From positions 16,089 through 80,088 of the forward strand of contig DAINDD010000002.1 in assembly GCA_036732045.1 (NCBI GenBank): a stretch of 64,000 nt of DNA. Reading direction: 5' to 3'. Positions 14,459 to 30,114 of this stretch are shown piece by piece. Position 1 is the first letter of the stretch; every line of letters starts with the position of its first letter. This DNA is from Chloroflexota bacterium (lineage in GTDB: Bacteria > Chloroflexota > Dehalococcoidia > SM23-28-2 > RBG-16-64-32). Position numbers and translations under genes: made by a program. The notes beneath the pieces are model-generated. The model was not told the DNA's origin. It did not search any database and saw nothing but the letters and a program-made list of their open reading frames with translations.

Positions 14459-14566
14459 TGCTTCCTTAGGGTTTGGAAACAGCCTTCGCCCGTAACCTTC
14501 AATTGAGGCTTCCCTCGTATCGTTATAGCCTCTGAACAAATGGCTGAGGAGCAGGGAGGGGCTGGT

Positions 14567-15712
14567 ATGAAAGTACCCCCAGCGGCCGTCTACTTCCCGG
14601 AGGAAGACAAACCGCAGATCGCCGCACGCATCATCGAATGTCTGGAAAGCGGAGCACTGACGCTCGGCAAGTACGGGCGCCAGCTGGAGGAAGAGTTCGC
14701 GCGGCTCTGCGACGTCCCTTACGCCGTCGCCGTCAACAGCGGCACCAGCGCGCTGGAGATCATCCTGCGTGCGATCGGCGTCGAAGGGCGCGAGGTGATC
14801 GTGCCCAGCAACACCTTCTTCGCCACGGCGGCCGCGGTCCAGCATGCCGGCGGCCGCGTGCGCTTCGCCGATTGCGACCCGGACACCTTCGCGCTCGACG
14901 TGCAGAGCCTGCGCTCAAACCTGAACGCAAATACGGCGGCCGTAATCCTCGTCCACATCGGCGGCATCATCACGCCGCGCATCCGCGAGATCGAGAAGAT
15001 CTGCCGGCAGGTCGGCGTGCCGCTGGTCGAGGACGCGGCCCACGCGCACGGCTCGACACTGGAAGGCCGCCCGGCGGGCAGCTTCGGTCTGGCGGCGGCG
15101 TTCTCGTTCTACCCGACGAAGGTGATGACCAGCGGCGAAGGCGGCATCATAACGACGCGCGACGAGGCGATCCACCGTGAAGCGATGATCTATCGCGACC
15201 AGGGCAAGGAAGGGTTCACCACCAACTACCACGTTCGCCTGGGTTACAACTGGCGGATGAGCGAGCCCCACGCCGTGATCGGCCTCGCGCAGATGGCGCG
15301 CCTGCCCGAGTTTATCGCGAGGCGACAGGAGATCGCGGCGGAGTACGACGCCGGCATCGGCGCCCTGCGCGACCACATCCGGCCCGTGCGGCCGACGCGT
15401 GGCTCCGTCAGCAACTACTACAAGTACATGGCGATGATCGACGGCGTCGACCGCGCCGACCTCAAGCGCACGATGCGCGAGCAGTTCGACGTCGGCCTGA
15501 GCGGCGAGGTGTACGAGACGCCATGTCACTTGCAGCCGATCTTCGCCCAGTTCCTGGACGGCCCGCTGCCCCAGGCCGAGAAGATCTGCGCGGGCCACAT
15601 CTGCCTGCCGGTCTCCGCCAAGATGACCCTTGAGGACGCGCGTTACGTGCTGACATCGCTGGGCGCGGCGCTTGAGTCGCTCAAAGCGACGCCCGTAGAG
15701 GTGGGAGGCTAG
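14567..15712 (+). CDS. DegT/DnrJ/EryC1/StrS-family PLP-dependent sugar aminotransferase (ArnB-like)
   Basis: Family signature around the PLP lysine (FSFYPTKVMTSGEGG). GGAGG RBS before the ATG at 14567. Confidence 0.9.
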   Translation: MKVPPAAVYFPEEDKPQIAARIIECLESGALTLGKYGRQLEEEFARLCDVPYAVAVNSGTSALEIILRAIGVEGREVIVPSNTFFATAAAVQHAGGRVRFADCDPDTFALDVQSLRSNLNANTAAVILVHIGGIITPRIREIEKICRQVGVPLVEDAAHAHGSTLEGRPAGSFGLAAAFSFYPTKVMTSGEGGIITTRDEAIHREAMIYRDQGKEGFTTNYHVRLGYNWRMSEPHAVIGLAQMARLPEFIARRQEIAAEYDAGIGALRDHIRPVRPTRGSVSNYYKYMAMIDGVDRADLKRTMREQFDVGLSGEVYETPCHLQPIFAQFLDGPLPQAEKICAGHICLPVSAKMTLEDARYVLTSLGAALESLKATPVEVGG

Positions 15713-15713
15713 C

Positions 15714-16661
15714 GTGCGAGTTGGAGTAACGGGAGCCTCCGGTTTCATCGGGTCGCACGTGGTCGACGCGCTTATCGAAGCTGGCCACGAGGTCGCCGTG
15801 ATCGATCTGCGCGCGCCGCACCGTCCCGACGTTGAGCACCGCGAGGCGAGCATTCTGGACAGCGCGGCGATGAATGATGCCGTCGCCGGCCTCGCCGCGC
15901 TCTTCCACCTGGCCGCCGTCGCCGACGTCAACGATGTCGTCGCCGACCCGGTCGCCGCGATCGAGCTTAACGTCACGGGCACAGTCCGCGCGCTGGAAGC
16001 GGCGCGCAAGAACGGCGTCAAGCGCTTCTTGCTGGCCAGCACGGTCTGGGTCTACTCCTCGATCCCGCCGATGGATGGGGACACCGTGGACGAGACCGCG
16101 CTCGTCGACCCGGCCGCCGTTCGTCACGTCTACACGACATCGAAGGTCGCGGCGGAGATGCTCTGCCACGACTACTGGAACATGCACAAGCTCCCGTTCA
16201 CAGTTCTGCGTTACGGGATCCCCTACGGCCCGCGCATGCGGTTCTCTCTCGTCATCCCGGTCTTCGTGCGCAAAGCCTTGCGCGGCGAGGCGCTGACGCT
16301 GAGCGGGGACGGCAGCCAGCACCGCAAGTTCGTCTACGTGGAAGACCTGGCGCGGGCGCACGTGCTCGCGCTGGGCGACGCGGCGCAGAACCAGACGTAC
16401 AACCTGGACGGCGCTGAGAAGATCAGCATTCTCCGCATCGCTGAGACCGTCCTCCGCCTGACCGGCGCCGACCGGCCGATCGAGTTCATGCCCGCCCGTG
16501 CGGGCGATTACACCGGCAAGGACGTTGTCAGCGAGAAGGCGGCGCGGGAACTGGGCTGGGCGCCGCAGATCGACTTCGACGAAGGAATGAGGCGCACTGT
16601 GCCGTGGCTGGTCGAGCGGATTCGCGCGGGGGAGGAGACGGCAGCGGCGACTCCGCGATGA
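15714..16661 (+). CDS. NAD-dependent epimerase/dehydratase (SDR, GalE/ArnA-decarboxylase-like)
   Basis: VGVTGASGFIGSHVV Rossmann motif, YxxxK (YTTSK). GTG start right after the upstream stop. Confidence 0.85.
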   Translation: MRVGVTGASGFIGSHVVDALIEAGHEVAVIDLRAPHRPDVEHREASILDSAAMNDAVAGLAALFHLAAVADVNDVVADPVAAIELNVTGTVRALEAARKNGVKRFLLASTVWVYSSIPPMDGDTVDETALVDPAAVRHVYTTSKVAAEMLCHDYWNMHKLPFTVLRYGIPYGPRMRFSLVIPVFVRKALRGEALTLSGDGSQHRKFVYVEDLARAHVLALGDAAQNQTYNLDGAEKISILRIAETVLRLTGADRPIEFMPARAGDYTGKDVVSEKAARELGWAPQIDFDEGMRRTVPWLVERIRAGEETAAATPR

Positions 16662-18727
16662 CGATGCTTCAACGGGCGCCGGAAGCGCGCCCCAAAGCGA
16701 CGGGCCCCCGCAGAATCGCCGTCGTGCCTGTCTTCAACGAAGAGCCCACCGTCGTTGGCGTTCTTGAAGAGCTCCTGACGCTGGTCGACGAGATCGTCGT
16801 CGTCGATGACGGCTCAACCGACCGCTCGCGCGAGGTGATCCTCGACTGGTCGCTGGGACGCCAGCACGTACACACGATCCTCTTCAACCAGAACCAGGGC
16901 CTCTCCTCTGCGTACTTCGCAGCGTTCCGGGAGATCGGCGCCAGGCTGCACGCCGGGGAGCTGGCAGGTGACGATCTCGTGATCACCGTCGACGCCGACG
17001 GCCAGCACGACCCGACCGACCTCGATCGCCTTGCGGCGCGCGTGACCGAGGACGGCTACGACGCGGCCATCGCCCGCCGTGACATGTCCGGTTACAGCTT
17101 TGTCAAGCGCGCCGGCAACGGCTTGCTTTCGGTTTGGGCGTCGGTCTGGGCGGGGACGCGCCTCTACGATGTCGAGTCTGGATTCCGGGTATTTCGCGCC
17201 GGCCCGCTGGTGGAGGCTCTGCGGTACTACCACGGCTTTCGCTACAGCGAGACGGTGGAGGTCGCCGTCGTCCTGCCGCGTCTCGGGTACCGCATCGCCA
17301 ACGACGTCAGCGTGCCGGTGCCGGTGCAGCGCTCGCGGACGCGGATCAGCGACGGCATTATCGATGCGCTGGCGATGATTGGCGCCTGGTGGCGCGTTGT
17401 CGCCGGACGGCACAAGCCGGCGGACATGCCGGCCTGGTCGATGTACGTCGTGCCGGTGCTGGCGCTGCTGGCGCTTCTCTTCGGCGCTGGCGATATCCTG
17501 GCTCATCGGCTCTTCCTTGCCTCCGACTCGATGCACAACTACGCGCACATCTGGTACCTCAGCGATCAGATCTTCCACCACGCCACCATCCCGATCCACG
17601 TCTCGTTGCTGGACAGCGGCAAGGCTGCGACGTTCCCCTACGCGATCGGGCCGTACCTAGCCGGGGCGTTGATCTACCCGATCTTCGGGAACTGGGCCGT
17701 GAGCCTGCTGATGGCGATCGCGGTTGTCGGCACGGTCTGGGCGGCGGGCGTCGTCCGGCCGGCCATGCGCGACCCGTGGCTCATCGCGCTGTTCGTGCTC
17801 AACCCCTTCTTCATCGATGCCGCGTTCAGTTTTCAGTTCGCGTCGCTCTGGTCCGCCCTCTTCTTCTTTCTGTTCGTCCGCGCGTTCGAGCGGCAACAGG
17901 CAGTGCCCGCGGCCCTGCTCCTTTGGCTCTGCGTTAGCAGCCAGCCGGTGATGGGATCGCTGGCGGCCGGCGTCTACGGGCTGGCGATTCTCGCCCTGCA
18001 CCGGGAGCGCTTTGGCCGGTTGCTGATGATCGGCGCGCCCGTCGGCCTCGCTCTAATCCCGATCTACTGGATGACGTTGATGACCCCGTCGCTCTCCGAC
18101 AACACGGCTGCCTTCGTGCGCAGTACGGCGGGCTCGATCGCCGCGCGCGGGACGTTCTTCGCCGCCCCGTTCGCCCTTAGCGCTGCGGCCCCGCTCCTGC
18201 GGCGCTACTACCGGCCGGCGTTGTCGTTCGGAGTCGTATCGGCGGTCGTCGGCGTGCTTTTTATGGGTGGGATCATCCGCTTCTACCGCTCGCCCAGCGG
18301 CTACTACGGCGTCCTGCACGACAGCAGCGACGTCTATGCGCAGTACTTCGCTTCGCCGGCATTTCAGGCTGGCGCGACGTACAGAGTGCTGGAGCCGAGC
18401 GAGCGCGAGGACGGGATGTACCGCTTTATCCAGCACCGGGCGGTGCTCTCCAATGAGTTCTTTACGGAAAGCACGATGTTCCGCAACTGGAGCACCGATC
18501 AGTACGGCTGTTACGCGGCGTACAAAGGGATTGACTACGTGGTTGTGGAGCGCGCCTGGGAGGAGCGTAGCCACCTGAACGAGGGCCACCTCTTGCAGTC
18601 GCTGGTCAGCAGCGGTAGCGCCAGCGTTTCTTACACCGATCCGGGCGGGCGCTTCGTGGTCTACAATATCCAACCGTTCGTCTCCGTACGGCAGAAGCCC
18701 GCGGCGCTCTCCGGGTGTTCGCTCTGA
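16658..18727 (+). CDS. GT2 polyprenyl-phosphate sugar synthase-like domain (ArnC/DPM1/GtrB type) fused to a large polytopic membrane domain plus a soluble C-terminal domain
   Basis: N-terminus IAVVPVFNEE...VVVDDGSTDRS...VDADGQHDP (GT-A, DxD). Then about 10 predicted TM helices and a roughly 150-aa C-terminal soluble part. Start ATG overlaps the epimerase stop. Confidence 0.8.
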   Translation: MTMLQRAPEARPKATGPRRIAVVPVFNEEPTVVGVLEELLTLVDEIVVVDDGSTDRSREVILDWSLGRQHVHTILFNQNQGLSSAYFAAFREIGARLHAGELAGDDLVITVDADGQHDPTDLDRLAARVTEDGYDAAIARRDMSGYSFVKRAGNGLLSVWASVWAGTRLYDVESGFRVFRAGPLVEALRYYHGFRYSETVEVAVVLPRLGYRIANDVSVPVPVQRSRTRISDGIIDALAMIGAWWRVVAGRHKPADMPAWSMYVVPVLALLALLFGAGDILAHRLFLASDSMHNYAHIWYLSDQIFHHATIPIHVSLLDSGKAATFPYAIGPYLAGALIYPIFGNWAVSLLMAIAVVGTVWAAGVVRPAMRDPWLIALFVLNPFFIDAAFSFQFASLWSALFFFLFVRAFERQQAVPAALLLWLCVSSQPVMGSLAAGVYGLAILALHRERFGRLLMIGAPVGLALIPIYWMTLMTPSLSDNTAAFVRSTAGSIAARGTFFAAPFALSAAAPLLRRYYRPALSFGVVSAVVGVLFMGGIIRFYRSPSGYYGVLHDSSDVYAQYFASPAFQAGATYRVLEPSEREDGMYRFIQHRAVLSNEFFTESTMFRNWSTDQYGCYAAYKGIDYVVVERAWEERSHLNEGHLLQSLVSSGSASVSYTDPGGRFVVYNIQPFVSVRQKPAALSGCSL

Positions 18728-20733
18728 TGATCAAGTCCGCGTTCGGCGCTGCCAGCGATCTGCTCCGGCTCCTGCAGTCGGCGCGAGTGCGGCGCTACCT
18801 GGCGCTCACGTTCTTCGTCGATGCAGGGCTCGTCTTCGTCCTGCTTGTCGCCATCCAGTCCTACCTCCCGGAGCAGTACGGAGCCAGCGAGGCGCTCGCC
18901 GGCTACGTGCTGGCTGCGTACGGCGCAGCGAAGCTCGCAGGGCAGCTCGGCGCCGGCTGGGTGATCGACCGCGTCGGCCCGAGGCGGGGCCTGATCGCTG
19001 GACTTTGCCTGACGGGCGCAGGCCAGGCCACGATGATTCTCGGCATCGTGCAGCCGGAGGCGGTAATACCGGCGGCGCTTCTCTACGGCCTTGGTGGTGC
19101 GATGATCTGGCCGTCGGCCTACGCGCTGGCAGCTGGAGAGTTCGAGGAGAGTGAACGGGCGCGGCTCAGCGCGGGCATGACGGTAACGACGGGCGTTGCT
19201 CTGGCGACGGCGCTGTGCCTCGGCCTGGCGCTGCCGGCGAGCTTCCCGTACGCCGCGGCGATCGCAGTCTGCGTCGCTTGCACGGTTGGTGCTCTGGCGG
19301 CTGCGCGCAGCTTCCCGGCCGCCGCCGCGCGGGCCGACGAGGCGACGCGTGACGCTCGCCGCCAGCTTCTCGAATCAATCCGGGACATCGTTTCTGCGCG
19401 GCGGGTCGCTTTCTCGCTGATCATTCTCTTGCAGGCGGCCATCCTCGGCGCGCTGCTGGCGATCTTCCGCAGCTACGGCCGGGAGACGCTGCAGGTTTCG
19501 CTGCGAGAAGAGATGCTGATGCTGCTGCCCGCCGGGGCGATCGGCGCTGGGGCGGTTGTACTTGGCGGCCTGCTGGCTGACCGCTTCGGCCGCATACCTG
19601 TTCTGGGCAGCGGCTACCTGCTAGCCACGTTCTCGATTTGGGGACTCTCCACGACCACCGATCACAGCGCCGTTGTACCGCTGGCCGCTCTCTGCGCCGC
19701 CGGGCTCGGCCTCGCCTTGCCGTGTACGAGCGCGCTTTCGCTCGACCTTTCGCGGAGCGCCGGCACGGGCACGTTGCTTGGTTGGTTCCTGACGATGGAG
19801 GGCGCCGGACACGTGATCGGACCGGCCGCCGGAGCTTGGGTGAACCACAAGGGCGGCTCCGCGCCGGTGTTCTGGCTCGTTGGTGGACTCGCGGCGGCGA
19901 TCGCCGCCGTCGCACTCGTGCCGCCGATCTGGGCGCGGCGGCCCGACGTGGAGCCTGTACGCCATCGTCTTCGGGCGCTGCTCTCTGGCACCGCGAAGGG
20001 AGCGCTTGTCTTCAGTCTTGGCTTCCCGGTAATTGCGACGTACTTTGCGTGGGACCCTGGCTCGCAGCTCTACGGTGACATAATCACGCACGGTCCACGT
20101 GACCGCATGGAGGTCGCCATCACGTTCGATGACGGGCCGAACGACCCCTGGACGCTACGCATCGCCGACAAGCTCGACCAGTACAGCGTGAGAGGCACCT
20201 TCTTCATCGTCGGCCAGAATGCCGACGTCCATCCGGAGATCGTGCGGAACCTGGCGCAGCGCGGCGAGTTGATTGGCAACCACTCGTACCGGCACCGCAA
20301 ATCGGACGCCGTGACCCAGCTTGGCTACGGGGAGCTGTGGCGGGCCGAGACCGCTATCGCGCATGCAGCGGGCGTCTGCCCGGCCATTTACCGCCCTCCC
20401 AACGGCTTCCATACGCCGTGGCAGCTGCACACGGTGGCGAGGCACGGGATGAAGACGGTGACCTGGGACGTAATACCGCGTGACTGGAAAGACCCGCCGT
20501 CCGACGTGATCGTTAGCCGGGTGCTCGATTCGGTGCAGCCAGGTTCGATCATCCTCTTGCACGACGGCGACGACACGAACCAGGGCACTGACCGCTCGGC
20601 CACGCTGAACGCACTGCCCGGCATCATCGAAGGCCTGCGCGCCAAGGGCTACGACATCGTGCGACTCGATCAGTTGTTGTCCATCCAACCGTACTTGCCG
20701 ACGTGCGACGGATTGCAGGCGGTAAACTCATGA
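18715..20733 (+). CDS. MFS transporter fused to a CE4 (NodB-homology) polysaccharide deacetylase domain
   Basis: About 12 TM MFS N-terminal portion. C-terminus has NodB motifs TFDDGP, GNHSYRH, and ILLHDG. Confidence 0.8.
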   Translation: MFALMIKSAFGAASDLLRLLQSARVRRYLALTFFVDAGLVFVLLVAIQSYLPEQYGASEALAGYVLAAYGAAKLAGQLGAGWVIDRVGPRRGLIAGLCLTGAGQATMILGIVQPEAVIPAALLYGLGGAMIWPSAYALAAGEFEESERARLSAGMTVTTGVALATALCLGLALPASFPYAAAIAVCVACTVGALAAARSFPAAAARADEATRDARRQLLESIRDIVSARRVAFSLIILLQAAILGALLAIFRSYGRETLQVSLREEMLMLLPAGAIGAGAVVLGGLLADRFGRIPVLGSGYLLATFSIWGLSTTTDHSAVVPLAALCAAGLGLALPCTSALSLDLSRSAGTGTLLGWFLTMEGAGHVIGPAAGAWVNHKGGSAPVFWLVGGLAAAIAAVALVPPIWARRPDVEPVRHRLRALLSGTAKGALVFSLGFPVIATYFAWDPGSQLYGDIITHGPRDRMEVAITFDDGPNDPWTLRIADKLDQYSVRGTFFIVGQNADVHPEIVRNLAQRGELIGNHSYRHRKSDAVTQLGYGELWRAETAIAHAAGVCPAIYRPPNGFHTPWQLHTVARHGMKTVTWDVIPRDWKDPPSDVIVSRVLDSVQPGSIILLHDGDDTNQGTDRSATLNALPGIIEGLRAKGYDIVRLDQLLSIQPYLPTCDGLQAVNS

Positions 20734-21641
20734 GCCGCCGAGTGCTCGTAACGGGCGGCGCAGGGTTCATCGGCTCGCACGTCGCCCAGAGGCTGTACTC
20801 GCTCGGCTGGGATACGCACGTGTTAGACAGCCTGGCGACCGGTGATCGCGCCAACGTCCCGGCCGGCGTGCCGCTGCACATTGCGGACATCCGGGCCGAA
20901 GGAGAACTGCTGGCGGTCCTCCGCACAGGCTACGACGCGATCGTGCACTGCGCGGCCCAGACGAGCGTTGAGCGCTCGATGAAGGATCCCGAATTCGACC
21001 GCGAGGTAAATGTTACCGGTACCCGTCACCTGCTCGTAGCCGCGCGCGAGACCGGCGTCGGTCGCTTCGTGTTCATCTCGTCTGGAGGCGCGATTTACGG
21101 CGAGACTGCGGAGCCCGCTACGGAGGCCAGCGTCCCGGCGCCGCGCAGCTTCTATGGAATGCACAAGTACGTGGCCGAGGAGTTCGCGCGCGCAGCGGGT
21201 GTTCCGTTCGCGATCCTGCGCCCGTCCAACGTCTACGGCGCGCGCCAGCGTTCAGACGCCGAGGGTGGGGTTCTGTCGATCTTCCGCGAGAGTCTTATGG
21301 CCGGTCTGCCGATCGAGCTCCACGGCGACGGTCGGCAGGTACGCGACTTCGTCTATGTGGACGACATCGTCGATGCGGTCGTCCTCGCGGCAGACACACA
21401 GGCGGACGTGATCTGGAACGTCTGCAGCGGCGTCGCGACGACGGTCAGTGAAGCCGCGCGCATCATCGGCGCGGAAATCGGCTGCGATCCGGTCATAGAG
21501 CGGAAGCCGCGCCGGGCGGGGGACATCGACAAGTCGCTGCTCAGCCCGGCCCGCATCCTCGCGACCGACGCTTGGGGGCCGCCCGTTGCCCTCGACGCGG
21601 GGCTGCGACGGCTCGCTGCGGACGCTTCCGCCGTTGGTTAG
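20730..21641 (+). CDS. NAD-dependent epimerase/dehydratase (UDP-sugar 4-epimerase-like)
   Basis: VLVTGGAGFIGSHV, YGMHKY (YxxxK). ATG overlaps the upstream stop (ATGA). Confidence 0.85.
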   Translation: MSRRVLVTGGAGFIGSHVAQRLYSLGWDTHVLDSLATGDRANVPAGVPLHIADIRAEGELLAVLRTGYDAIVHCAAQTSVERSMKDPEFDREVNVTGTRHLLVAARETGVGRFVFISSGGAIYGETAEPATEASVPAPRSFYGMHKYVAEEFARAAGVPFAILRPSNVYGARQRSDAEGGVLSIFRESLMAGLPIELHGDGRQVRDFVYVDDIVDAVVLAADTQADVIWNVCSGVATTVSEAARIIGAEIGCDPVIERKPRRAGDIDKSLLSPARILATDAWGPPVALDAGLRRLAADASAVG

Positions 21642-22536
21642 CTAACGGCTGGCAGCGGACTTAGCCAATCTGCCAGCAGCGCGATCACGGCCAGCATTGT
21701 CGCCAGCCAGTGCACCCGCCGGATGTCGGCCCGGTCGCTGATTGATCGCCGCGACGAGTAGCGCAACCGACAGCGCGGAGAGCAGGCCGGGTGACCCACA
21801 GGAGGGCCACAACGCCAGCGCCAGCAGGTAACCCCACGGCAAGCGACGCCCAGCAGAGCAGCCGCGCCAGGGTCTCGCCGAGAGATGCCACCAGTCCCCG
21901 CGCGCCGAGCTGGCGGTCGCTCTCGATATCGATCATCGTGCCAGCGAGGTCGACGGATACGACGAGCGGCAGGCCGATGACGTAGGCTAGGCAGTAGCTG
22001 CGACCGATACTGGTGGACGAGCTCGAATGCGGCGATGGCCAGCGATGGGCAGGGCGAACCCAGAACGGAAGCCAGACGAAAGCTGTGCCCTTCAGCCGAG
22101 CGTTAGAGGCGAAGCCACGCGGGTGCCGACCGCTCCAAGTGCGACGAGGCGTGGCCCGAGCGGTAGCGCCAGCGCCAGCCCCAGGCCGGTCAAGACCAGT
22201 GCGAGCTCCAGGGCGAAGGGGGGCTGACGAGGCCGGGCGGGTAGCGCTTGCCATGGCATGGCGATGGCGTCGAGACGGCGGCCACAGTAGTCGTTGTGGA
22301 CGCCGATCGCCATCTGCGTGGCCAGCACGGCGAGCAGGTAGGGCGCGAGCTGGCCAGCGGGCGCCGCCATCGGCCGCTATGGTCGCGAAGGCCGTCGTCG
22401 CGAGCAGGACCATCAGGATCGGCGGCAGTGGGAACAGCTCGACGAAAGCGCGAAGGGCATATGTAGCTGGCACCGGCTGGAGGCGATGTACGTCGGTACC
22501 GCTGGATGGACGCATCGCAGCACTCTTCCGCCGCAT
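21642..22536 (-). pseudogene. UbiA-family polyprenyltransferase, disrupted by frameshifts
   Basis: The NDxxDxxxD-type motif (HNDYCGRRLDAI...PWQALP), a downstream DxxGDRAAG-like motif, and a TM-rich N-terminus lie in different reading frames (ORF-track pieces 22092-22370, 21642-21842 and 21685-22536). Confidence 0.4.
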
Positions 22537-22753
22537 TCTATGCCCGGATGAGCGCTTCGGACCATGGCCTCGATGATCGGCGGCCCCGGACGTCCTTCGA
22601 GCAACGTGAGGCTAGCTACTGGCGCCTGGTCGTCGCGAAACCCACGATCGGCAGGCCGAACCGGTTGACCACATGCGGCCCACCCAGGCCTATCGACGCA
22701 GCGAATGCGCGCGACCATACTTTCCAGAGAGACCGTCGCAAAGGGGAGGAACC

Positions 22754-23178
22754 GTGTCACTACACGCGGTGAACGTAAAGCTGCGCCATCAGCGCATCCT
22801 GGGCCAGAAGGCGGTCGATGAATTCACCAACGCCTTCGGGACGTGCACGAACATCATCCAGACCGTCGTCATCATTGTCTGGACGGCGACAAATGCGATT
22901 GGGATCATCTATAACTGGGATCCATACCCATTCATCCTCCTGAACCTCGGCTTCGGCGCGCAGGCCTCTTACGCGGCGCCGCTGATCCTGATGGCCTCCA
23001 ACCGCTCCGCCGAGTAGGACCGGATGACGCTGGAGCACGATTCCGAAGAGGTGGATGCGATCCTCCAGATCCAGGACCGCCAGATCGAGCTTCTGAAGCG
23101 ATCAAGGCCGAGACGGACCTTGTCAAGCAGCTCGTGGACCAGGCGACTAAACCCGCCTCAGACGCACAGCCCCGCTAG
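22754..23178 (+). pseudogene. DUF1003-family membrane protein with an in-frame TAG and a C-terminal frameshift
   Basis: WDPYPFILLNL...APLILMASNRSAE then TAG (23015-17), then in frame DRMTLEHDSEEVDAILQIQD. The coiled-coil tail (IKAETDLVKQLVDQ...) is in another frame. AGGGGAGG RBS before a GTG start. Confidence 0.5.
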
Positions 23179-23331
23179 GCGCTTCGTTGACAGCGTGCGG
23201 CCACAGACCTACGCTCGCCGTGATTTACCTCCCGCAGACGAGGGAATGATCTGAAAGCGGTCGGGGCGCGAACTAACTTCCATGATGATGACGGCATCGC
23301 AGCCGGCCTTCGACGCCGCGATCCGCTGGCC

Positions 23332-23823
23332 ATGGAAGCGCTATACGATCGTCTGAGCCGCCAGGCGTTTGGCCTGGCGTACCGGATGCTTGGCGATAGC
23401 CAGTCGGCCGAGGACGTAGTCCAGGACGCGTTTCTTTCGGTTTGGCGCGCGGTTGAGCGGATCGACGCCTCGCGCGGCAAGCTCCAGTCGTACGTCCTGA
23501 CTGTCGTACACCGCCGCGCGATCGACGTGCTGCGCGCCCGCAAGGCGCCGGTCGTGCAGTTGGGAGCCGACGACGCCCCGGACATTCGCGACGAACGGAG
23601 CGACGTTCTGGAGACGGTTACCATGGTGCTCGACGCGCAGGCCGTTCGCAATGCGCTGGGTGCCTTGCCCAAGGAACAGCGAAGGGTGGTGGAGATGGCG
23701 TACTTCCAGGGCCTGACGCACGTCGAAATCGCCGAAGGGTTAGCGCTTCCGCTCGGCACCGTGAAGAGCAGGCTGAGACTGGCTCTGGATAAGATCCGCG
23801 CCGCTCTGTCTGACCGGATATGA
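23332..23823 (+). CDS. ECF (sigma-70 family) RNA polymerase sigma factor
   Basis: Region 2 (AEDVVQDAFLSVW) and region 4 (VEMAYFQGLTHVEIAEGLALPLGTVKSR) motifs. Confidence 0.85.
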   Translation: MEALYDRLSRQAFGLAYRMLGDSQSAEDVVQDAFLSVWRAVERIDASRGKLQSYVLTVVHRRAIDVLRARKAPVVQLGADDAPDIRDERSDVLETVTMVLDAQAVRNALGALPKEQRRVVEMAYFQGLTHVEIAEGLALPLGTVKSRLRLALDKIRAALSDRI

Positions 23824-23826
23824 ACG

Positions 23827-24528
23827 ATGAGCTGCGAAGAGATCGACGAGCTGGCCGGCGCCTACGCGTTCGGGGCACTGCCCGATGCGCAACGCGCCGC
23901 AGTGGCCGCGCACCTCGCCTCCTGCGAGCGCCACCCGGAGATGCGGGAGCTCGAGGCTTTAGCCGCGAGCCTCGCGCTGGCCGCCGAAGAAATGGAGCCG
24001 CCGCCTGCGCTCGAGTCGCGGCTGATGGAGGCAATCCAGGCGGACAGGCGCGCCTCACAGTCCGCAACCTGCATTCTGATCTCGGTCCAAGGCAGCTTGT
24101 TCGATACGATTCGTGGCTGGTTCGCGAGTCCACCGTTGGGCTACGGATTGTCGGCCGCCCTGGCCGTTGCCGTTGTGGGCTTGCTGGCCTGGAACATCAG
24201 CCTGCAGGGCGGGTCTGCGGACCAGGTCGTCGTCAACGTGTCCGGCTCGGCATCCGGGCGCGTCATCTACCTGAAGGACGAGGGGCTGGCGGTGATGGAC
24301 GTGCGCGGCCTACCGGCCCTGCCCTCCGGCAAAGTTTACGAAGTCTGGTCGATGTCCTCCGGAAAGGCGACGCGCCTTGGCCTGCTGAACACCACCGCGA
24401 GCGGGGAGGCGAGCGCCTCGATGCCGTTCAACGATTCCGGCGTGAACCTGGTCGCCGTGACGGTGGAGCAGGCGCCGGGCGTCGACCAGCCGACGACCTC
24501 GCCGGTCTTCAGCGCCGCCTTCTCGTAA
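23827..24528 (+). CDS. anti-sigma factor (RskA/ChrR-like zinc-finger anti-sigma with one TM)
   Basis: Directly after the sigma gene. N-terminus ELAGAYAFGALPD...HLASCERH, a single TM, and an extracytoplasmic C-terminal domain. Confidence 0.75.
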   Translation: MSCEEIDELAGAYAFGALPDAQRAAVAAHLASCERHPEMRELEALAASLALAAEEMEPPPALESRLMEAIQADRRASQSATCILISVQGSLFDTIRGWFASPPLGYGLSAALAVAVVGLLAWNISLQGGSADQVVVNVSGSASGRVIYLKDEGLAVMDVRGLPALPSGKVYEVWSMSSGKATRLGLLNTTASGEASASMPFNDSGVNLVAVTVEQAPGVDQPTTSPVFSAAFS

Positions 24529-24680
24529 GGCGCCGCGGCCTCGCGACTGCTTTTCGCCAGTCGTTTGCAATATTCTTCACGCGCTGGTGATCTAGCGGCT
24601 GCATCTTCACGAAATACAAGCTGAAGATGCGGCCACGGCAACTGCCGTTGAGCCGGGAAACACCATAAGGAGGAGACTTT

Positions 24681-25988
24681 ATGTCCCTACTCACACGCAA
24701 CACCCGTGCCTTGACCACGGCGTTGTTCTTGTCCCTGGCAGTGCTCCTCGGCAGCACTGCTCTGCTGGCCCTGAACACCGTTCATGGCTCGGACCATCGG
24801 GATGGCCCAGCGACGACCGCGAACTCGCAGCTGGACATCACCGACCTCTACGCGTTCCGGAGCCCGACCAATAACGACGATCTGGTCGTGGCCCTGGGCG
24901 TGAATGGCCTGGTGACCCCGGACCAGAACGGCAACGTCAAGTTCAGCTCGACGGGGTCGTACACGATCCATGTCGACAACAACGTTGACTTCGTGGACAA
25001 AGCTACGGTCAAGGTCACCTTCGACAACAGCACGCCGCAGAAGTTCACAATCGCCGGACTGTCAGGTGGCTCGATCACCGGCGCCGTCACGGCACCCGGC
25101 GCGACGCCGAACATCGTGACGTCCGGCGGCATCAAGGCGTTTGCCGGCCTGCGCGACGACCCGTTCTTCTTCGACCTCACCGCCTTCAAGAAGTTTGTCG
25201 CCGGACCGTACGTGCCTGCGGCCGGACTCCGCGCGGCGGCTGACGGTGCGCCTGCGGACACCTTCGCCGGAACGAACGTACTGTACATGGCGCTCGAGTT
25301 CCCGATCACGGCGCTCACGGGCGGGACGGCGTCGAACACTGGCACGATCAGGGCCTGGGCCTCGACCGACACGGGCAGCGGCCAGTTGGACCGCGTCGGC
25401 ATCCCGGCCCTCAACACGGCGCTCGTCCACGGGGACGCTGCCAAAGACACCTACAACAAGGGCACTCCAGCGACCGACGTGGCCAACAACCTGGCCAACG
25501 CACAGACGTCCATCCAAGGACTGCGTGACGCGGTTGACCCGGTGCTCAACGGCCCTGTTGGGTCAGAGGACAACGGCCCGCTGGGCAACCTGACCTCGGC
25601 GCAGGTGGCGGGGGCATTGACCCCGGACATCGTAACTATCGACTTCTCCAAGCCCGTCGCTTTCCCCAATGGCCGGCAGCTGACAGACGATGTGATCGAC
25701 ACGGCTCTCCAGCTGATCCTCAACCGCAAGGCGGGCATCACCGACGGCATCAACGCCAACGACAAGACCTTCGGCACGACGTTCCCGTTCCTGGCTGACC
25801 CGTTCCTCCCTGCCGCGGCGACGGCGAGCGCCAGCCCAACGGTAACGCCCGGCAACCTGCCGAATACTGGTGGCGACCCGGGGAGCAGCAGTACAAACAT
25901 GCTGCTTGAGATGGCGATGATCGCAGCCGGAGTAATGCTGATAGTGTCTGGCGGCAGCCTGATCGTGGCCCGCCGAGGCAACCGCTAA
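24681..25988 (+). CDS. secreted DUF4331-family protein with a C-terminal LPXTG sortase anchor
   Basis: Signal peptide. DUF4331 N-terminal signature SDHRDGP...DITDLYAF. C-terminus LPNTGG + hydrophobic segment + RRGNR. Confidence 0.8.
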   Translation: MSLLTRNTRALTTALFLSLAVLLGSTALLALNTVHGSDHRDGPATTANSQLDITDLYAFRSPTNNDDLVVALGVNGLVTPDQNGNVKFSSTGSYTIHVDNNVDFVDKATVKVTFDNSTPQKFTIAGLSGGSITGAVTAPGATPNIVTSGGIKAFAGLRDDPFFFDLTAFKKFVAGPYVPAAGLRAAADGAPADTFAGTNVLYMALEFPITALTGGTASNTGTIRAWASTDTGSGQLDRVGIPALNTALVHGDAAKDTYNKGTPATDVANNLANAQTSIQGLRDAVDPVLNGPVGSEDNGPLGNLTSAQVAGALTPDIVTIDFSKPVAFPNGRQLTDDVIDTALQLILNRKAGITDGINANDKTFGTTFPFLADPFLPAAATASASPTVTPGNLPNTGGDPGSSSTNMLLEMAMIAAGVMLIVSGGSLIVARRGNR

Positions 25989-26017
25989 CCAACTGAACCA
26001 ATAGAAGGGACCGAGAG

Positions 26018-27358
26018 ATGAGAGTAGCGACGACCTGGAAACCGGGGCGAAGCCTGAGCGGACTCGCCTTGGCCCTCATCGGCGGAGCGCTGATCGCGTT
26101 CTCCATCGCTCGGATAGTGGCGAACGGCGGCGGCGGCTCCAGCAGCCCCGCCGCCGGCTCCGCCGCCGACCCGTACGCAGCGACCAGCGCGACCATCGCG
26201 TTCTGGGAAGCGCGCGTCCACTCCGACCCCGCCGACTTCACTGCCTACAACCACCTCGCCGAAGGCTATGTGCAGCGCGGCCGAGAGACTGGGGACGTCG
26301 GCGACTACACTCGCGCAGAGGCCGCCGTCGATGGCTCGCTAGCGTCGATCCCCGGCGAAAACTACACCGCCTACGCGCTCAAGGCCTATCTGCAGAACGT
26401 CCGGCACGACTTCACAAACTCGATGGCCACGGCACTCCACGCGGAGACGCTAAACTCGGCCGACCCGTACGCGTCGTCGGTTGTCGGCGACGACCAGGTC
26501 GCGCTCGGCCAGTACGACGCGGCTTTCCAGACGTACTCAGCGCTCGTTCAGAGCTCGCCCGATCTTTCGACGTTCAGCCGGATGGCGTTGATCTACGAGA
26601 TCCGCGGCGACCTCCCGAACGCCGAAAGCGCCTGGAAGAACGCGCTCGCGAATGACGCTGGCGGCAACCCAGAGAGCACGGCCTGGGCGCACACGCAGTA
26701 CGGCACGTTCCTATTCAACCGGAATCGCATCGACGAGGCGGACACGCAGTATGCCGAGGCCCTCAAGGCTTACCCAACCTACATTCACGCGCTGGCGGGT
26801 CAGGCCAGCGTCGCGGCGGCGCGGGGCGACTACGACCGCTCGATCGGCCTCTACACCCAGGTAACCGAGCGCCAGCCGCTACCGCAGTACGTCGCGGCAC
26901 TCGGCGACGTCTACGCTGTTGCGGGCAAGCAAACCCAAGCGGACCGCCAGTACGCGCTGATCGGCGCGATCGGACAGCTTTACCAGGCCAACGGAATCAA
27001 CGTTGACCTGCAGATGTCGCTCTTCTTCGCGGATCACGACAAGAGCATCAGCAATGCCGTGCAGCAGGCGCTGGCCGTGCGCCAGGCCCAGCCCGGCAGC
27101 ATCTACACGGCGGACGCCGTCGCCTGGGCCCTGTACAAAGCCGGCCAGTACGACCAGGCGCTTCTCTATGCGAACACCGCGCTGGCGGTGGGAACGCAAG
27201 ACGCGAGCCTCTTCTACCACGCCGGCATGATTCAGAAGGCGCTCGGCAACAAAGCCGCGGCGCAGGACGACCTGCAGAAGGCGATCGCGATCAACTCGCA
27301 CTTCTCGCCGCTGCAGGCGCCGATCGCGCAGCAGGCACTTTCGGAGCTGGCTGGATGA
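26018..27358 (+). CDS. TPR-repeat protein with an N-terminal membrane anchor
   Basis: N-terminal TM, then multiple TPR-like repeats (AxxxYxxAL...). Confidence 0.75.
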   Translation: MRVATTWKPGRSLSGLALALIGGALIAFSIARIVANGGGGSSSPAAGSAADPYAATSATIAFWEARVHSDPADFTAYNHLAEGYVQRGRETGDVGDYTRAEAAVDGSLASIPGENYTAYALKAYLQNVRHDFTNSMATALHAETLNSADPYASSVVGDDQVALGQYDAAFQTYSALVQSSPDLSTFSRMALIYEIRGDLPNAESAWKNALANDAGGNPESTAWAHTQYGTFLFNRNRIDEADTQYAEALKAYPTYIHALAGQASVAAARGDYDRSIGLYTQVTERQPLPQYVAALGDVYAVAGKQTQADRQYALIGAIGQLYQANGINVDLQMSLFFADHDKSISNAVQQALAVRQAQPGSIYTADAVAWALYKAGQYDQALLYANTALAVGTQDASLFYHAGMIQKALGNKAAAQDDLQKAIAINSHFSPLQAPIAQQALSELAG

Positions 27359-28884
27359 CGATTAGCATGGCGACTCGGCCGCTGATGCTTATTGGTGTCG
27401 TCGCAGCGCTGCTTGCGGTCGCATTACTCGCGCTGGCGGCGCCGCAGATCGCCAGCGCCCACCCGCTAGGCAACTTTACAGTCAACCGCTACAGCCGGAT
27501 TGAGGTCTACTCGGACAAACTACGCGTCAACTACGTGCTGGATATGGCTGAAATACCGACGTTCCAGGACGCCACGAACGTCGACACCAACGGCGATGGC
27601 ACCGTCTCCGACGCTGAGGCCCAGGCCTACGCCGCGAGCAAGGCAGTTGAGTTGGGAACGCACCTCGGGCTTCAACTGAACGGCGAGTCCCAGAAGCTGC
27701 ATCTGACCGACAGCCATGTCTCCTTTCCCGAAGGGCAGGGAGGCCTCCAGACGACGCGCCTGACCGCGACCTACGAAGCACCGGCGCCCTCCGGCCAGGT
27801 CGCGCTGGCGTACGTGGATGGCAACTTCGCGGATCGCCTCGGTTGGCGCGAAATCGTCGTTCTGCCGGGCACCGGAGCCGAGCTTACAGGAGATTTCCCG
27901 ACACAGGACGTGAGCCAGGCGCTGACGTCGTATCCCGGCGACAAAGTCGCAAGCCCGTTGGACAGCACAAGCGTCGCCTTCACTTTCAACGACGCCAGCG
28001 CGATGGCGGCTCCGGTTCTCTCCGGCATTCCCGTCGCGGCGAAGGCGCCGGAGCGTTCAGGCACGGCATTCGTCTCGCTGATCAACACCGATAACATCAC
28101 GCTCGAAGTGATCCTGCTGGCGCTGCTGGCAGCGTTCGGATTCGGCGCGTTGCACGCCGTCGAGCCAGGCCATGGCAAGACCATGGTGGCGGCGTACTTC
28201 GTCGGCGTGAAGGGAACCGCCCGGCAAGCGCTGTCGCTGGGGATGGTCGTCGCAATCACGCACACGATTGGCGTCTTAGGCATCGGCCTGGTCGCCATCT
28301 TCGGCTCGCAATGGATCCTGCCGGAGACGCTCTATCCCTGGCTGAGCCTCGCCTCAGGGCTGATGGTGCTGGCGTTGGGGTTACGGCTCATCGTACAGCG
28401 CAGCGGCGGCCAGCTGATGCACCGTCTTTCGCACCTGTCGATCTTCGGACACCACCACCACTCGCACGAGCACGACCCCACTGCATCGACTTCGACTGGC
28501 ATCCCGCCGTGGAAGACGCTGATCGCCGTCGGTCTCGCAGACGGTCTGACGCCGAGCCCCTCAGCGCTCGTTGTGCTGATCGCGGCGATCTCGCTGCACC
28601 GCGTCGGACTTGGCGTCGCGCTAATCGTCGCCTTCAGCATTGGCCTGGCGACAGTGCTGGCGTCGATCTCGCTCGGCCTGCTTTTCTTCCGCCAGGCTAT
28701 GGATGGCATCAGCCGCAGGGCCTCGACGACGCGCCTCCCACTTTTGTCGCGCATCGCGCCGTCCCTAACGAGCGAGGGACTCATCGTGCGCGCGCTGCCG
28801 ATGGCCGGTGCAATCGCTCTGGTGGCCGTTGGTCTCCTGCTGACGCTGCGCGCGCTCGGGCAGCCGGTCGGCGTTAGCATCTAG
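27355..28884 (+). CDS. RcnA/NicO-like nickel/cobalt permease fused to a roughly 230-aa N-terminal extracytoplasmic domain
   Basis: HAVEPGHGK signature, His-rich loop (HHHHSHEHD), 6 TM. Start overlaps the TPR stop (ATGA). Confidence 0.75.
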   Translation: MTISMATRPLMLIGVVAALLAVALLALAAPQIASAHPLGNFTVNRYSRIEVYSDKLRVNYVLDMAEIPTFQDATNVDTNGDGTVSDAEAQAYAASKAVELGTHLGLQLNGESQKLHLTDSHVSFPEGQGGLQTTRLTATYEAPAPSGQVALAYVDGNFADRLGWREIVVLPGTGAELTGDFPTQDVSQALTSYPGDKVASPLDSTSVAFTFNDASAMAAPVLSGIPVAAKAPERSGTAFVSLINTDNITLEVILLALLAAFGFGALHAVEPGHGKTMVAAYFVGVKGTARQALSLGMVVAITHTIGVLGIGLVAIFGSQWILPETLYPWLSLASGLMVLALGLRLIVQRSGGQLMHRLSHLSIFGHHHHSHEHDPTASTSTGIPPWKTLIAVGLADGLTPSPSALVVLIAAISLHRVGLGVALIVAFSIGLATVLASISLGLLFFRQAMDGISRRASTTRLPLLSRIAPSLTSEGLIVRALPMAGAIALVAVGLLLTLRALGQPVGVSI

Positions 28885-28949
28885 CACCCGGCCGGTGCCA
28901 ACCGTCTGCTCTCGCGGCCTCTGGGCGCACCCGTCTGCTTGCGGCGGCC

Positions 28950-29624
28950 TCATGAGCCGCGGCGGCGCATCAGCTCCTGGCGCACGAAGGGGTTCATCTC
29001 CTTCTCGGCGCCGATGCGCGTCTCCAGCATGTGGCCGGGAAGCACGACCGTCTCCTCAGGAAGCACGAGCAGTTTGTCGATAATGCTGGCCATCTCCTGC
29101 TCGTAGTCGCCGCCGGGCAGGTCCGTGCGTCCGATGGAGCCAGCGAAGAGGGTATCGCCGCTGAACAGCAGCCCGTCCGTGTAGTAGGACAAGCTGCCGG
29201 GCGTGTGGCCAGGAGTGTGGATAACACGCAGCTTGACGCCCTCAACCTCTATCTCGTCGCCGTCCTCGGGCGAGAAGTCGGGGTCCGGTGGGTCTTCGGC
29301 GGCTTGGCCGGTGAGGCGGAGCGCTGTCTGCGCCGCCATCGCGGCGATGGCACGCTCGCCCTGGTGCAGGTAGAACTTGGCGCCGGTCTGCCGCTGGACC
29401 TCACGCACGCCGAGGATGTGGTCGACGTGGGCGTGGGAGTTGGCGATGGCCTTGATGGCGACGCCCATGTCGCGCGCCATCGCCAGGATCTCCTCCGGCT
29501 GGTCGCCGGGGTCGATGCAGATGCCTTCGCCAGTGCGGCGGTTGCCGATGACCCAGCAGTTCTCCTGGAAGACCCCGACGACGATGCCGCGGACGATGAG
29601 CTCGGTAACTTGCGGTTCTGTCAT
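28950..29624 (-). CDS. MBL-fold metallo-hydrolase (glyoxalase II-like)
   Basis: HAHVDH and HTPGHTPGS metal-binding motifs. Confidence 0.85.
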   Translation of the reverse strand: MTEPQVTELIVRGIVVGVFQENCWVIGNRRTGEGICIDPGDQPEEILAMARDMGVAIKAIANSHAHVDHILGVREVQRQTGAKFYLHQGERAIAAMAAQTALRLTGQAAEDPPDPDFSPEDGDEIEVEGVKLRVIHTPGHTPGSLSYYTDGLLFSGDTLFAGSIGRTDLPGGDYEQEMASIIDKLLVLPEETVVLPGHMLETRIGAEKEMNPFVRQELMRRRGS

Positions 29625-29640
29625 GGGTACGAGCGCTATG

Positions 29641-30114
29641 TTACCCACCCACAAGCTGTGTCGCCAGAAGCGTCAGCATCGCCGCCAGGCAGACGAGGTG
29701 ATCGCGGAGGATGCTTCGGGCGATCGTGCTGCGCACATCCGTGGGATCCGTCGGTCGGCCCAACCGCCGGGCTCGTCCGAACACCCTCAGGCCGGCCAGC
29801 CCGAACCCCACGAGCGCCACTGCGATCGAGACGACGCTGACCCAAGCCGGAACGTCGCCGCGCGCTGCCTGGACGGTGAGCGCGACAAGCAGCGTAAGCA
29901 TTACAGTCGTGACCAGTCGTCCCATCGGCGAGGCGGTCTCAGTCACGCGGTGGTAGTACCCCGAGATCGAGTCGAGTACGGACTCCGGGACGGCTGGCTC
30001 GCGACGGTGGGCCAGCACCTGGACGTCAAACATCAGATCGAACCAGAGGACGGCGATTAGGAATCCGGCGCCGGCGGCAATGAGCTGCGAAAGGAGCATG
30101 GCGCCGCCAATCAT
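29641..30114 (-). CDS. hypothetical membrane protein
   Basis: 157 aa with four predicted TM helices. Confidence 0.45.
   Translation of the reverse strand: MIGGAMLLSQLIAAGAGFLIAVLWFDLMFDVQVLAHRREPAVPESVLDSISGYYHRVTETASPMGRLVTTVMLTLLVALTVQAARGDVPAWVSVVSIAVALVGFGLAGLRVFGRARRLGRPTDPTDVRSTIARSILRDHLVCLAAMLTLLATQLVGG

Follow-up and report, generated by a model that had tools for sequence, protein, structure and literature searches.

Permeases of the RcnA/NicO type handle nickel and cobalt, those of the HupE/UreJ type handle nickel, and RcnA of Escherichia coli is regulated by RcnR. In Isd-type relays, wall-anchored capture proteins feed a membrane transporter, and protein N-termini of the form NH2-X-X-His bind Cu(II) and Ni(II) and are known as amino-terminal copper- and nickel-binding (ATCUN) motifs. 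Anglerase (Ang) domains, which are fused to HupE/UreJ-2 permeases, were proposed by Franco Cairo et al. in 2025 to fish for metal ions and to feed the attached permease; a defining trait of anglerases is Cu/Ni binding by way of a mono-histidine brace, and they bind Cu(II) with a Kd of ~60 to 70 nM, and Ang-1 binds Ni(II) with a Kd of ~220 nM (PMC12537917). That report makes no mention of NicO, RcnA, Chloroflexota, DUF4331, tetratricopeptide repeat (TPR) proteins, sigma factors, or sortase (PMC12537917). Among regulators, SigK of Mycobacterium tuberculosis has a Cys pair that forms a redox disulfide (PMC7826278), and the signal to which it responds is listed as yet to be elucidated. Here, we describe a five-gene locus at positions 23332 to 28884 of a 64,000-nucleotide (nt) stretch of contig DAINDD010000002.1 from a Chloroflexota bacterium (the window, to which all coordinates refer), in which genes encoding an extracytoplasmic function (ECF) sigma factor and its anti-sigma factor precede those encoding a DUF4331 protein, a TPR protein, and a metal permease. 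According to our analysis, there is roughly an even chance (about 50%) that this locus encodes an ECF-controlled relay for extracytoplasmic metal capture and uptake, consisting of DUF4331, TPR protein, and permease.

Gene set and its conservation across genomes

The sequence itself and profile searches of its translations resolve the region into five open reading frames (ORFs), all co-directional on the plus strand, as had been claimed in an earlier reading of the DNA letters (the original prediction):

23332 to 23823, plus strand: ECF sigma factor, SigK-like, 163 amino acids (aa), without cysteines (Pfam Sigma70_r2 and r4_2; TIGR02937)
23827 to 24528, plus strand: RskA-type single-pass anti-sigma factor (Pfam zf-HC2 and RskA_C; NF052375)
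24681 to 25988, plus strand: DUF4331 surface protein, 435 aa (PF14224, 157.5 bits)
26018 to 27358, plus strand: membrane-anchored extracytoplasmic TPR protein, 446 aa (multiple TPR Pfam families)
27355 to 28884, plus strand: two-domain metal permease, 509 aa (Pfam NicO; NF007454 below its cut-off; AlphaFold2 [AF2] model; Foldseek match to 9GCE)

The domain families assigned by the original prediction hold as well, including the sigma and anti-sigma factors, both of which pass general family models, and the TPR membrane protein, with its matches to multiple TPR Pfam families and an N-terminal transmembrane (TM) helix. The spacing of the five genes is operon-like. The sigma and anti-sigma genes are separated by 3 nt (ACG) rather than by the 4 nt stated previously, an intergenic stretch of 152 nt lies 5' of the DUF4331 gene, 29 nt separate the DUF4331 and TPR genes, and the stop codon of the latter overlaps the permease start in the sequence ATGA. 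Close homologues of the window's proteins come from metagenome-assembled genomes of Chloroflexota or Dehalococcoidia.

The DUF4331 alignment was scanned against one genome per species, which yielded 80 loci (labeled L001 to L080) from Chloroflexota, Actinomycetota, Gemmatimonadota, Planctomycetota, Bacteroidota, Acidobacteriota, Verrucomicrobiota, and Alphaproteobacteria and from one Thermoplasmata archaeon; L072 belongs to a cultured organism, Chryseolinea sp. T2. Their gene neighbors were tallied in three ways, namely, by tblastn with the window proteins, by unsupervised clustering of ORFs, and by phmmer within 10 kb. By tblastn, most loci have a TPR homologue directly 3' of DUF4331; in Chloroflexota and Actinomycetota, this gene is followed by both halves of the permease, and the sigma/anti-sigma pair adjoins in either a co-directional or a divergent orientation. 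ORF clustering returned five genuine recurring families, the other large clusters being antisense shadow ORFs:

DUF4331: 80/80 loci by ORF clustering
TPR protein: 63/80 loci by ORF clustering, 72/80 by phmmer
Sigma factor: 43/80 loci by ORF clustering, 46/80 by phmmer
Anti-sigma factor: 40/80 loci by ORF clustering, 40/80 by phmmer
RcnA-like permease fusion: 36/80 loci by ORF clustering, 39/80 by phmmer

Many of the gene absences coincide with contig ends. A metal permease of any kind follows DUF4331-TPR in 43 of the 80 loci, and about 40% of the loci have DUF4331-TPR together with an ECF-type promoter and without a nearby sigma gene. With the gene order found again in dozens of independent genomes, the arrangement goes far beyond what chance would produce, and the neighborhood analysis asked for by the original prediction bears out co-conservation, with a TPR gene adjoining DUF4331 in 63/80 loci and the permease fusion present in 36 to 39. 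Judged from this recurrence, the TPR protein is probably an obligate partner of DUF4331.

The identity of the permease changes with the type of genome. In the loci L070 and L021, the operon position of the permease is occupied by Ang-HupE/UreJ-2 fusion genes, which have exactly the published anglerase architecture (PMC12537917); the alphaproteobacterial protein of L021 reads GA|HRPSD... at its predicted cleavage site and contains the loop DMDGDGAVTWGE. The Bacteroidota loci L061 and L067 have short HupE/UreJ-2 genes whose products start with His after the signal peptide. Furthermore, six of the seven Bacteroidota loci encode a member of one TonB-dependent receptor family, which is also represented in one Gemmatimonadales locus; its domains are CarboxypepD_reg, Plug, and barrel only, with no signaling extension identified, and NCBIfam gave no substrate for it. 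The presence of two unrelated divalent-metal permease families, each with an N-terminal His, at the same operon position is a classic signature of shared function. Because the diderm DUF4331-TPR loci pair with HupE/UreJ-2 permeases and TonB-dependent receptors, this displacement of the permease and the outer membrane importer favor uptake, and on comparative evidence import is favored over export. As a separate observation, seven Actinomycetota loci (L016:6415-7119(-), L037:13916-14611(+), and five more) carry a second, short (~230 aa) NicO-like gene right after the Ang-like-RcnA fusion gene.

Permease, DUF4331, and TPR proteins

The permease consists of a signal peptide (aa 1 to 35), an Ang-like beta-sandwich from His36 onward, a linker, and a six-TM domain of the RcnA/NicO type:

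27460 to 27999, plus strand: Ang-like N-terminal domain, aa 36 to 215, starting H-P-L-G-N-F (conservation, AF2 model, and Foldseek)
28102 to 28881, plus strand: RcnA/NicO-type TM domain, with HAVEPGHGKT at aa 267 to 276, a cytoplasmic His-rich loop HHHHSHEH at aa 366 to 373, and GLADGLTPSPSA at aa 393 to 404

Residues 257 to 350 match NicO (43.2 bits versus a threshold of 27.7), and residues 259 to 374 match the RcnA model NF007454 with 93 bits, below its cut-off of 195; PF13795 (HupE/UreJ-2) does not match the window permease, and no Pfam family covers the first ~250 aa. These first residues are nevertheless more than the long signal or linker region that the original prediction had considered as a refutation of its Ni/Co-type permease with an extra extracytoplasmic domain. 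In the AF2 model, residues 40 to 180 form a beta-sandwich with a predicted local distance difference test (pLDDT) score of 80 to 93, in which beta1, beta2, and three helices are followed by beta3 and the remaining strands. When this model was compared with the Protein Data Bank (PDB) by Foldseek, the single match below 1e-3 was the Cu-bound Ang-1 domain of a HupE/UreJ-2 protein (9GCE; E value 5.7e-4, probability 1.0, TM-score 0.49), followed by weak matches to PA4063 and ZrgA, both of them Zn-binding proteins. Over 36 loci, residues H36 to N40, D63, A65, E66, P68, D155, and G163 are 100% conserved, and the signature A33-x-A35|H36 is 88 to 100% conserved over 30 database homologues and the 36 loci; His36 is taken as the first mature residue according to the A-x-A rule.

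The protein thus compares with the anglerase-permease fusions (Ang-1 or Ang-2 with HupE/UreJ-2; PDB 9GCE) in having an invariant His straight after the signal peptide, an Ig-like beta-sandwich whose beta2 and beta3 strands are separated by three helices, as they are in Ang-1, and a flexible linker to a multi-pass divalent-metal permease (PMC12537917). It differs from them in that the permease is of the RcnA/NicO rather than the HupE/UreJ-2 type and in having an EF-hand-like loop. We therefore regard the N-terminal domain as probably anglerase-like in function, yet set apart from the anglerases by two features, its permease type and its lack of detectable sequence homology. With E. coli RcnA (which acts with RcnB) and the NicO family PF03824, the membrane domain has in common six TM helices, a central cytoplasmic His-rich loop, and the motifs HAxEPGHGK and GLxxGLxPxPxA; it is unlike RcnA in its extra extracytoplasmic capture domain of 215 aa, its NF007454 score (93 versus 195 bits), its import-pointing genomic partners, and its control by an ECF sigma factor instead of RcnR. 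The canonical EF-hand-like loop DTNGDGTVSDAE (D77 to E88; aa 77 to 88; 27583 to 27618) lies within the helical insertion, is nearly invariant in homologues, and has a similar counterpart in the DMDGDGAVTWGE loop of the L021 Ang-HupE protein; it may be a Ca2+ site.

DUF4331 is identified by PF14224 with 157.5 bits against a gathering threshold of 27, and the family is large, with 6,335 representatives (at 50% identity) at an E value of <=1e-3 and 2,687 at <=1e-10. The protein is laid out as a signal peptide (aa 1 to 36), an Ig-like beta-sandwich, and a helical domain with many invariant Asp and Asn residues; structure comparisons found no solved homologue or catalytic fold. In 60 full-length proteins representing eight phyla, nearly all invariant positions are Asp, Asn, Arg, Phe, or Pro, as in RDDPFFFD and NGRxLxDDV; there are no conserved Cys or Met residues, and exactly one His is invariant. 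This His is always located directly after the signal peptide, within [A/G]-[A/S]-D-H-x-D:

24789 to 24797, plus strand: codons for S37-D38-H39, the predicted mature N-terminus of DUF4331 (conservation and the -3/-1 rule)

D-H-x-D was present in 67/67 proteins, and [AGS][AS]DHxD was found in 94 of the 150 best family representatives, most of the others being apparently fragments as judged by their profile coordinates. A cleavage that leaves X-D-H satisfies the -3/-1 rule in 66 of 67 proteins, versus 41 of 67 for a cleavage that leaves D-H. The predicted mature N-terminus would be (A/S)-D-H in all DUF4331 proteins examined, which resembles the ATCUN pattern of a free N-terminus with His at position 3 and no Pro at position 2; if the signal peptide were cleaved one residue later, the protein would instead start D-H, with His at position 2. 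From this we infer an ATCUN-like N-terminus that would bind Cu(II)/Ni(II). The low pLDDT of the N-terminal tail is consistent with its being flexible.

The original prediction described DUF4331 as anchored to the cell wall through LPXTG; the window's protein has an LPXTG-like sequence as judged by eye, and this is a trait of its clade rather than of the family core. The C-terminus has LPNTG (aa 393 to 397), a hydrophobic stretch (aa 411 to 430), and RRGNR, which together are LPXTG-like, and clade relatives carry the related motifs [LAP]P[NSQK]TG. The NCBIfam LPXTG models gave no match on DUF4331 at an E value of <=0.01, and no sortase-like ORF with TLxTC was detected in the 64-kb window. The LPXTG-like signal is confined to the Dehalococcoidia-type clade; the DUF4331 proteins of Actinomycetota, Chloroflexia-type genomes, and diderms are without it and end in FPYLAxP(H/N). 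As in the Isd-type relay of Gram-positive bacteria, the gene for a surface protein with a putative sortase signal accompanies that for a membrane transporter, and the surface protein would act ahead of the transporter, with capture at the surface preceding hand-over; the locus is unlike Isd in having no NEAT domains, haem, or ABC transporter and in that the LPXTG-like anchor is found in the Dehalococcoidia-type clade only.

In Bacteroidota and one Gemmatimonadales genome (L077:9923-11152, L061, L067, L075, L078, L079, and L036), DUF4331 is encoded by two adjacent genes. The product of the first has a Sec signal and ADH and corresponds to the N-terminal sandwich half; that of the second corresponds to the C-terminal helical half and has a lipoprotein signal peptide of its own. 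This split speaks for two halves that are separate modules and interact with each other. A literature search on DUF1007 gave nothing useful.

The TPR protein has a TM helix at aa 13 to 34, and since basic residues precede this helix, we predict an N-in orientation with the repeats facing outward. Across 65 sequences from many phyla, H130, D158, G164, R188, and G197 are 100% conserved. The codons for H130, D158, and R188 span 26402 to 26584, and such invariance is unusual for a pure scaffold. The invariant residues suggest a specific binding site, either ligand/peptide-binding or catalytic, rather than a passive scaffold.

Sigma factor, anti-sigma factor, and promoter motifs

The sigma factor contains regions 2 and 4 only (Sigma70_r2, 73.9 bits; r4_2, 55 bits) and passes the general ECF model TIGR02937 (99.4 bits; cut-off, 42.9). 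Of the subfamily models, SigK (NF007228) gives the highest score, but the 142.8 bits are below its membership threshold of 226. As none of its 163 residues is a cysteine, the redox disulfide of SigK is absent. The anti-sigma factor matches zf-HC2 (35.1 versus 22.2 bits), RskA_C (68.3 versus 29.4), and NF052375 (114.4 versus 100), and it is composed of a cytoplasmic zf-HC2 domain (C3, H29-x3-C33-x2-H36), a TM helix at aa 104 to 122, and an extracytoplasmic RskA_C domain. In the alignment of orthologues, the ectodomain has the invariant residues Y171, W174, G185, E214, G218, and P222 and no conserved His or Cys.

The pair most resembles SigK-RskA of M. tuberculosis (ECF19, within the clade ECF18/19/214). 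NF007228 is the top-scoring sigma subfamily, the anti-sigma factor has an RskA_C ectodomain and one TM helix, and the sigma operon adjoins a small regulon of secreted and surface proteins, with autoregulation implied. It is unlike its mycobacterial counterpart in its cysteine-free sigma factor, which scores under the SigK cut-off, and in its targets, which are DUF4331, TPR protein, and permease instead of mpt70/mpt83. With CnrYXH and other ECF-controlled metal systems and with FecIRA, the locus has in common an ECF sigma factor and a membrane anti-sigma factor governing an adjacent metal transport operon, and its diderm versions include a TonB-dependent receptor within the locus, as in FecIRA-type surface signaling. 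It differs from both in that the anti-sigma factor is RskA-type and not CnrY/CnrX or FecR, the receptor is without an identified signaling extension, and the target includes import-type parts.

The upstream regions of DUF4331 in close relatives, when aligned, gave the purely empirical motif TGATCC-N16-CGAA(C/T). In the 64-kb window, TGATC-N17-CGAA has three matches versus 0.58 expected, two of which lie 5' of the sigma gene and 5' of DUF4331:

23247 to 23274, plus strand: ECF-type promoter of the sigma gene, TGATC-N17-CGAACT (motif match; core 23247 to 23272)
24588 to 24615, plus strand: ECF-type promoter of the DUF4331-TPR-permease operon, TGATC-N17-CGAAAT, 92 nt 5' of the ATG (motif match; core 24588 to 24613)

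The promoter search suggested by the original prediction for the region upstream of 24681 was thus successful, with TGATC-N17-CGAA(A/C)T located both there and 5' of the sigma gene. The third match, 46722-46747(-), is within the ORF 46497-47327(-) and was set aside as probably a chance occurrence, an internal promoter being less likely. TGATC-N17-CGAA is found 5' of DUF4331 at a similar distance in all 10 assessable loci among L001 to L012, and 12 of the 14 loci of the close clade have it 5' of the sigma gene. The presence of one motif 5' of both genes implies autoregulation of the predicted regulon. Other clades have variants of the motif 5' of DUF4331:

Actinomycetota: GAACC-N16-CGAA, in many cases paired back to back as divergent promoters
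Second Dehalococcoidia clade: TGATCA-N16-CGTAAAG
Chloroflexia-type genomes: (G/C)ATCC-N16-CG(T/A)A
Bacteroidota: AATCC-N16-CGTA

A relaxed pattern covering these variants is present in 50 of 69 DUF4331 upstream regions versus 2.4% of random 250-nt windows; it was drawn up after inspection of the data, so that its nominal P value is optimistic.

Several further elements were observed in these leaders. In the actinobacterial loci L016, L019, L022, L025, L029, L032, L035, L037, and L041, a GGTTCGAACC-like palindrome ~40 to 80 nt 5' of DUF4331 consists of back-to-back GAACC -35 boxes, each with CGAA at N16 on its own strand, an arrangement that apparently provides divergent ECF promoters, one serving DUF4331 and the other the sigma or TPR-permease operon. 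In the window, a 9-bp inverted repeat was read from the sequence:

24601 to 24629, plus strand: inverted repeat GCATCTTCA-N11-TGAAGATGC, covering the -10 element and the likely transcription start

The repeat is not conserved in the closest loci, L006 and L001, and has no Rfam match; the leaders of the window, L006, and L001 have a GCGGCCAC box in common. The sister Dehalococcoidia clade (L034:9880-9991, L052, L071, L080, L038, L042, L030, L062, and L066) carries a conserved leader hairpin, GCGGG..CCAAGGTGCACCGG..CCCGC, between its TGATCA-N16-CGTAAAG promoter and the DUF4331 start, just 5' of the ribosome-binding site and without an Rfam match, which could be a cis-regulatory RNA or an operator. 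An Rfam scan of positions 22000 to 30000 and of one sister-clade leader returned nothing meaningful, and a known riboswitch in the intergenic region was rejected for want of an Rfam match. Scans for sigma-70 promoters and intrinsic terminators remained at background level. A TTGACA-N17-TACGCT sequence noticed by eye at 23187 to 23215, 5' of the ECF promoter of the sigma gene, was not called by the consensus scan and could be a weak housekeeping promoter for basal sigma expression.

As for the surroundings, the window genes flanking the unit are unrelated housekeeping and polysaccharide genes, and the next downstream gene is convergent and encodes a metallo-beta-lactamase-fold protein. Farther upstream, a fusion of a major facilitator superfamily (MFS) transporter and a polysaccharide deacetylase domain (672 aa; 18715 to 20733) closes a sugar-nucleotide and glycosyltransferase cluster (14540 to 21641).

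Proposed relay and competing explanations

In the proposed relay, the RskA-type anti-sigma factor would hold the SigK-like sigma factor at the membrane until an envelope signal releases it, and the freed sigma factor would transcribe its own operon and the DUF4331-TPR-permease operon, which would make the locus a self-contained regulon of two transcription units. The flexible X-Asp-His tail of DUF4331, which is probably surface-anchored in this clade, would catch an ion of the Cu(II)/Ni(II) type, the membrane-tethered TPR protein would pair with DUF4331, and the Ang-like domain of the permease would take the ion on its first residue, His1, and deliver it into the RcnA/NicO-type channel. The gene set, synteny, promoter motifs, modeled folds, and invariant residues were seen directly, and it is from these that metal binding, metal identity, the order of hand-over, the direction of transport, and the signal sensed by the anti-sigma factor were inferred. 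The most economical guess for the metal is Ni(II), with Cu(II) and Co(II) as alternatives, since RcnA/NicO, HupE/UreJ, ATCUN, and Ang chemistry all have nickel in common. The suggestion of the original prediction that the locus might be a cell surface apparatus for metal handling, with capture at the wall, hand-over via the TPR protein, and passage through the permease, is supported in this form, its function being read from the genes and models listed above. A broader version appears possible and, to us, somewhat doubtful: DUF4331-TPR would be the core of a cross-phylum metal acquisition system, with DUF4331 acting as an ATCUN-tailed proteinaceous metallophore for Ni(II)/Cu(II) that hands its ion via the TPR protein to a permease with an anglerase-type domain (RcnA-like in monoderms; HupE/UreJ-2, together with a TonB-dependent receptor, in diderms), all under a SigK/RskA-type switch.

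Several observations weigh against an uptake relay. With respect to the permease, the TM domain has an exporter, RcnA, as its closest characterized relative, and the top NCBIfam match is a nickel/cobalt efflux transporter. The likeness of the N-terminal domain to Ang-1 is at the fold level only and moderate (TM-score 0.49). There is no detectable sequence homology to Ang, as profile and single-sequence PDB searches miss 9GCE; hhalign of the domain against the N-terminal domains of L021 and L070 likewise gave probabilities of 6.6% and 0.8%. With respect to DUF4331, the cleavage site was placed by the -3/-1 rule, and the invariant residues other than His39 (Asp, Asn, and Arg) are hard ligands that would fit Ca2+ or a structural or enzymatic site equally well; no mention of DUF4331 was found in the literature searched. 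As for the genomic context, phmmer found no permease within 10 kb at the Gemmatimonadota, Planctomycetota, and Acidobacteriota loci, no genes for nickel, cobalt, or copper enzymes recur among the neighbor clusters near the loci, and no metalloregulator gene is among the conserved neighbors. Control by an ECF sigma factor would also be unusual for Ni or Cu uptake.

The main rival is ECF-controlled efflux, in which the sigma/anti-sigma pair would sense an excess of Ni, Co, or Cu in the envelope, as CnrYXH does, and induce an RcnA-type exporter, while the N-terminal domain, DUF4331, and the TPR protein would buffer the expelled metal in the manner of RcnB. The RcnA-like features of the TM domain (HAxEPGHGKT, GLxxGLxPxPxA, and the His-rich loop), its top NCBIfam model, and the existence of ECF groups with RskA-like anti-sigma factors tied to heavy-metal resistance, such as ECF290, speak for such detoxification. 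We nonetheless consider it rather unlikely, since the diderm DUF4331-TPR pairs come with HupE/UreJ-2 permeases and TonB-dependent receptors, both of which are import machinery, the RcnA model score is under half of its cut-off, and an outward N-terminal-His capture domain has been described for uptake permeases (PMC12537917). Those same diderm receptors, which argue for bringing something in from outside, also count against a role in metalloprotein maturation, an explanation that we hold to be slightly less probable again. Here, DUF4331 would be an extracytoplasmic metalloprotein or enzyme, the permease would supply its metal, and the TPR protein would be an assembly chaperone comparable to CcmI and NrfG for cytochromes. 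The strict DUF4331-TPR pairing, the translational coupling of TPR protein and permease via ATGA, the invariant H130, D158, and R188 of the TPR protein, which suggest a specific binding site, and the many invariant Asp, Asn, and Arg residues of DUF4331, consistent with an active or structural site, would all suit this role, but DUF4331 is without a catalytic fold or solved homologue in our comparisons and many loci are without any permease.

Surface signaling, in which DUF4331 and the TPR protein would provide the sensory input (a ligand or the state of the envelope) to the RskA anti-sigma factor and the permease would be a secondary target, is compatible with the uptake relay, although as an explanation by itself it seems to us clearly improbable. 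The sigma/anti-sigma pair adjoins in 40 to 46 of the 80 loci, and the anti-sigma ectodomain is without conserved metal-binding His or Cys, so that a protein partner as the signal is plausible; yet ~40% of the loci combine DUF4331-TPR and an ECF-type promoter with no sigma gene nearby. Least probable of all, and in our estimate very unlikely, is that the locus belongs to a generic envelope stress regulon, with DUF4331 as a Ca2+-stabilized surface or adhesin protein whose link to a metal permease is incidental. The Asp/Asn-rich composition of DUF4331, its Ig-like sandwich, its putative wall anchor in this clade, and the unrelated housekeeping and polysaccharide genes around the unit would agree with this, whereas metal permeases from two unrelated families are found repeatedly at one position relative to DUF4331-TPR, and both extracytoplasmic proteins, DUF4331 and the permease, have an invariant N-terminal His motif.

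Returning to the metal uptake relay, the statement of the original prediction that the combination is not a described system stands for RcnA/NicO together with DUF4331, TPR protein, and ECF control, which is new, and falls for one component, since HupE/UreJ-2 permeases with an N-terminal-His capture domain were described in 2025 (PMC12537917). ECF-controlled metal systems and wall-anchored capture relays are likewise of already known kinds. The new elements would be the RcnA/NicO pairing, the DUF4331 and TPR partners, the ATCUN-like tag, SigK/RskA-type control with a defined promoter, and the breadth of phyla.

For DUF4331, a large family, the associations with a TPR protein, two metal permease families, TonB-dependent receptors, and an ECF switch provide a testable function. 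The anglerase concept would come to include a second permease superfamily (RcnA/NicO), the phyla Chloroflexota and Actinomycetota, and multiprotein relays, and RskA-type ECF systems would gain a defined regulon with its promoter motif. If the broader version, with DUF4331 as a cross-phylum metallophore, is true, it would represent the first concrete physiological input and output for the SigK/RskA-type sigma/anti-sigma family, which has long been enigmatic, and it would mean that RcnA-type permeases can act as importers. In the soil and aquatic bacteria with such a locus, key enzymes are limited by the supply of Ni, Co, and Cu.

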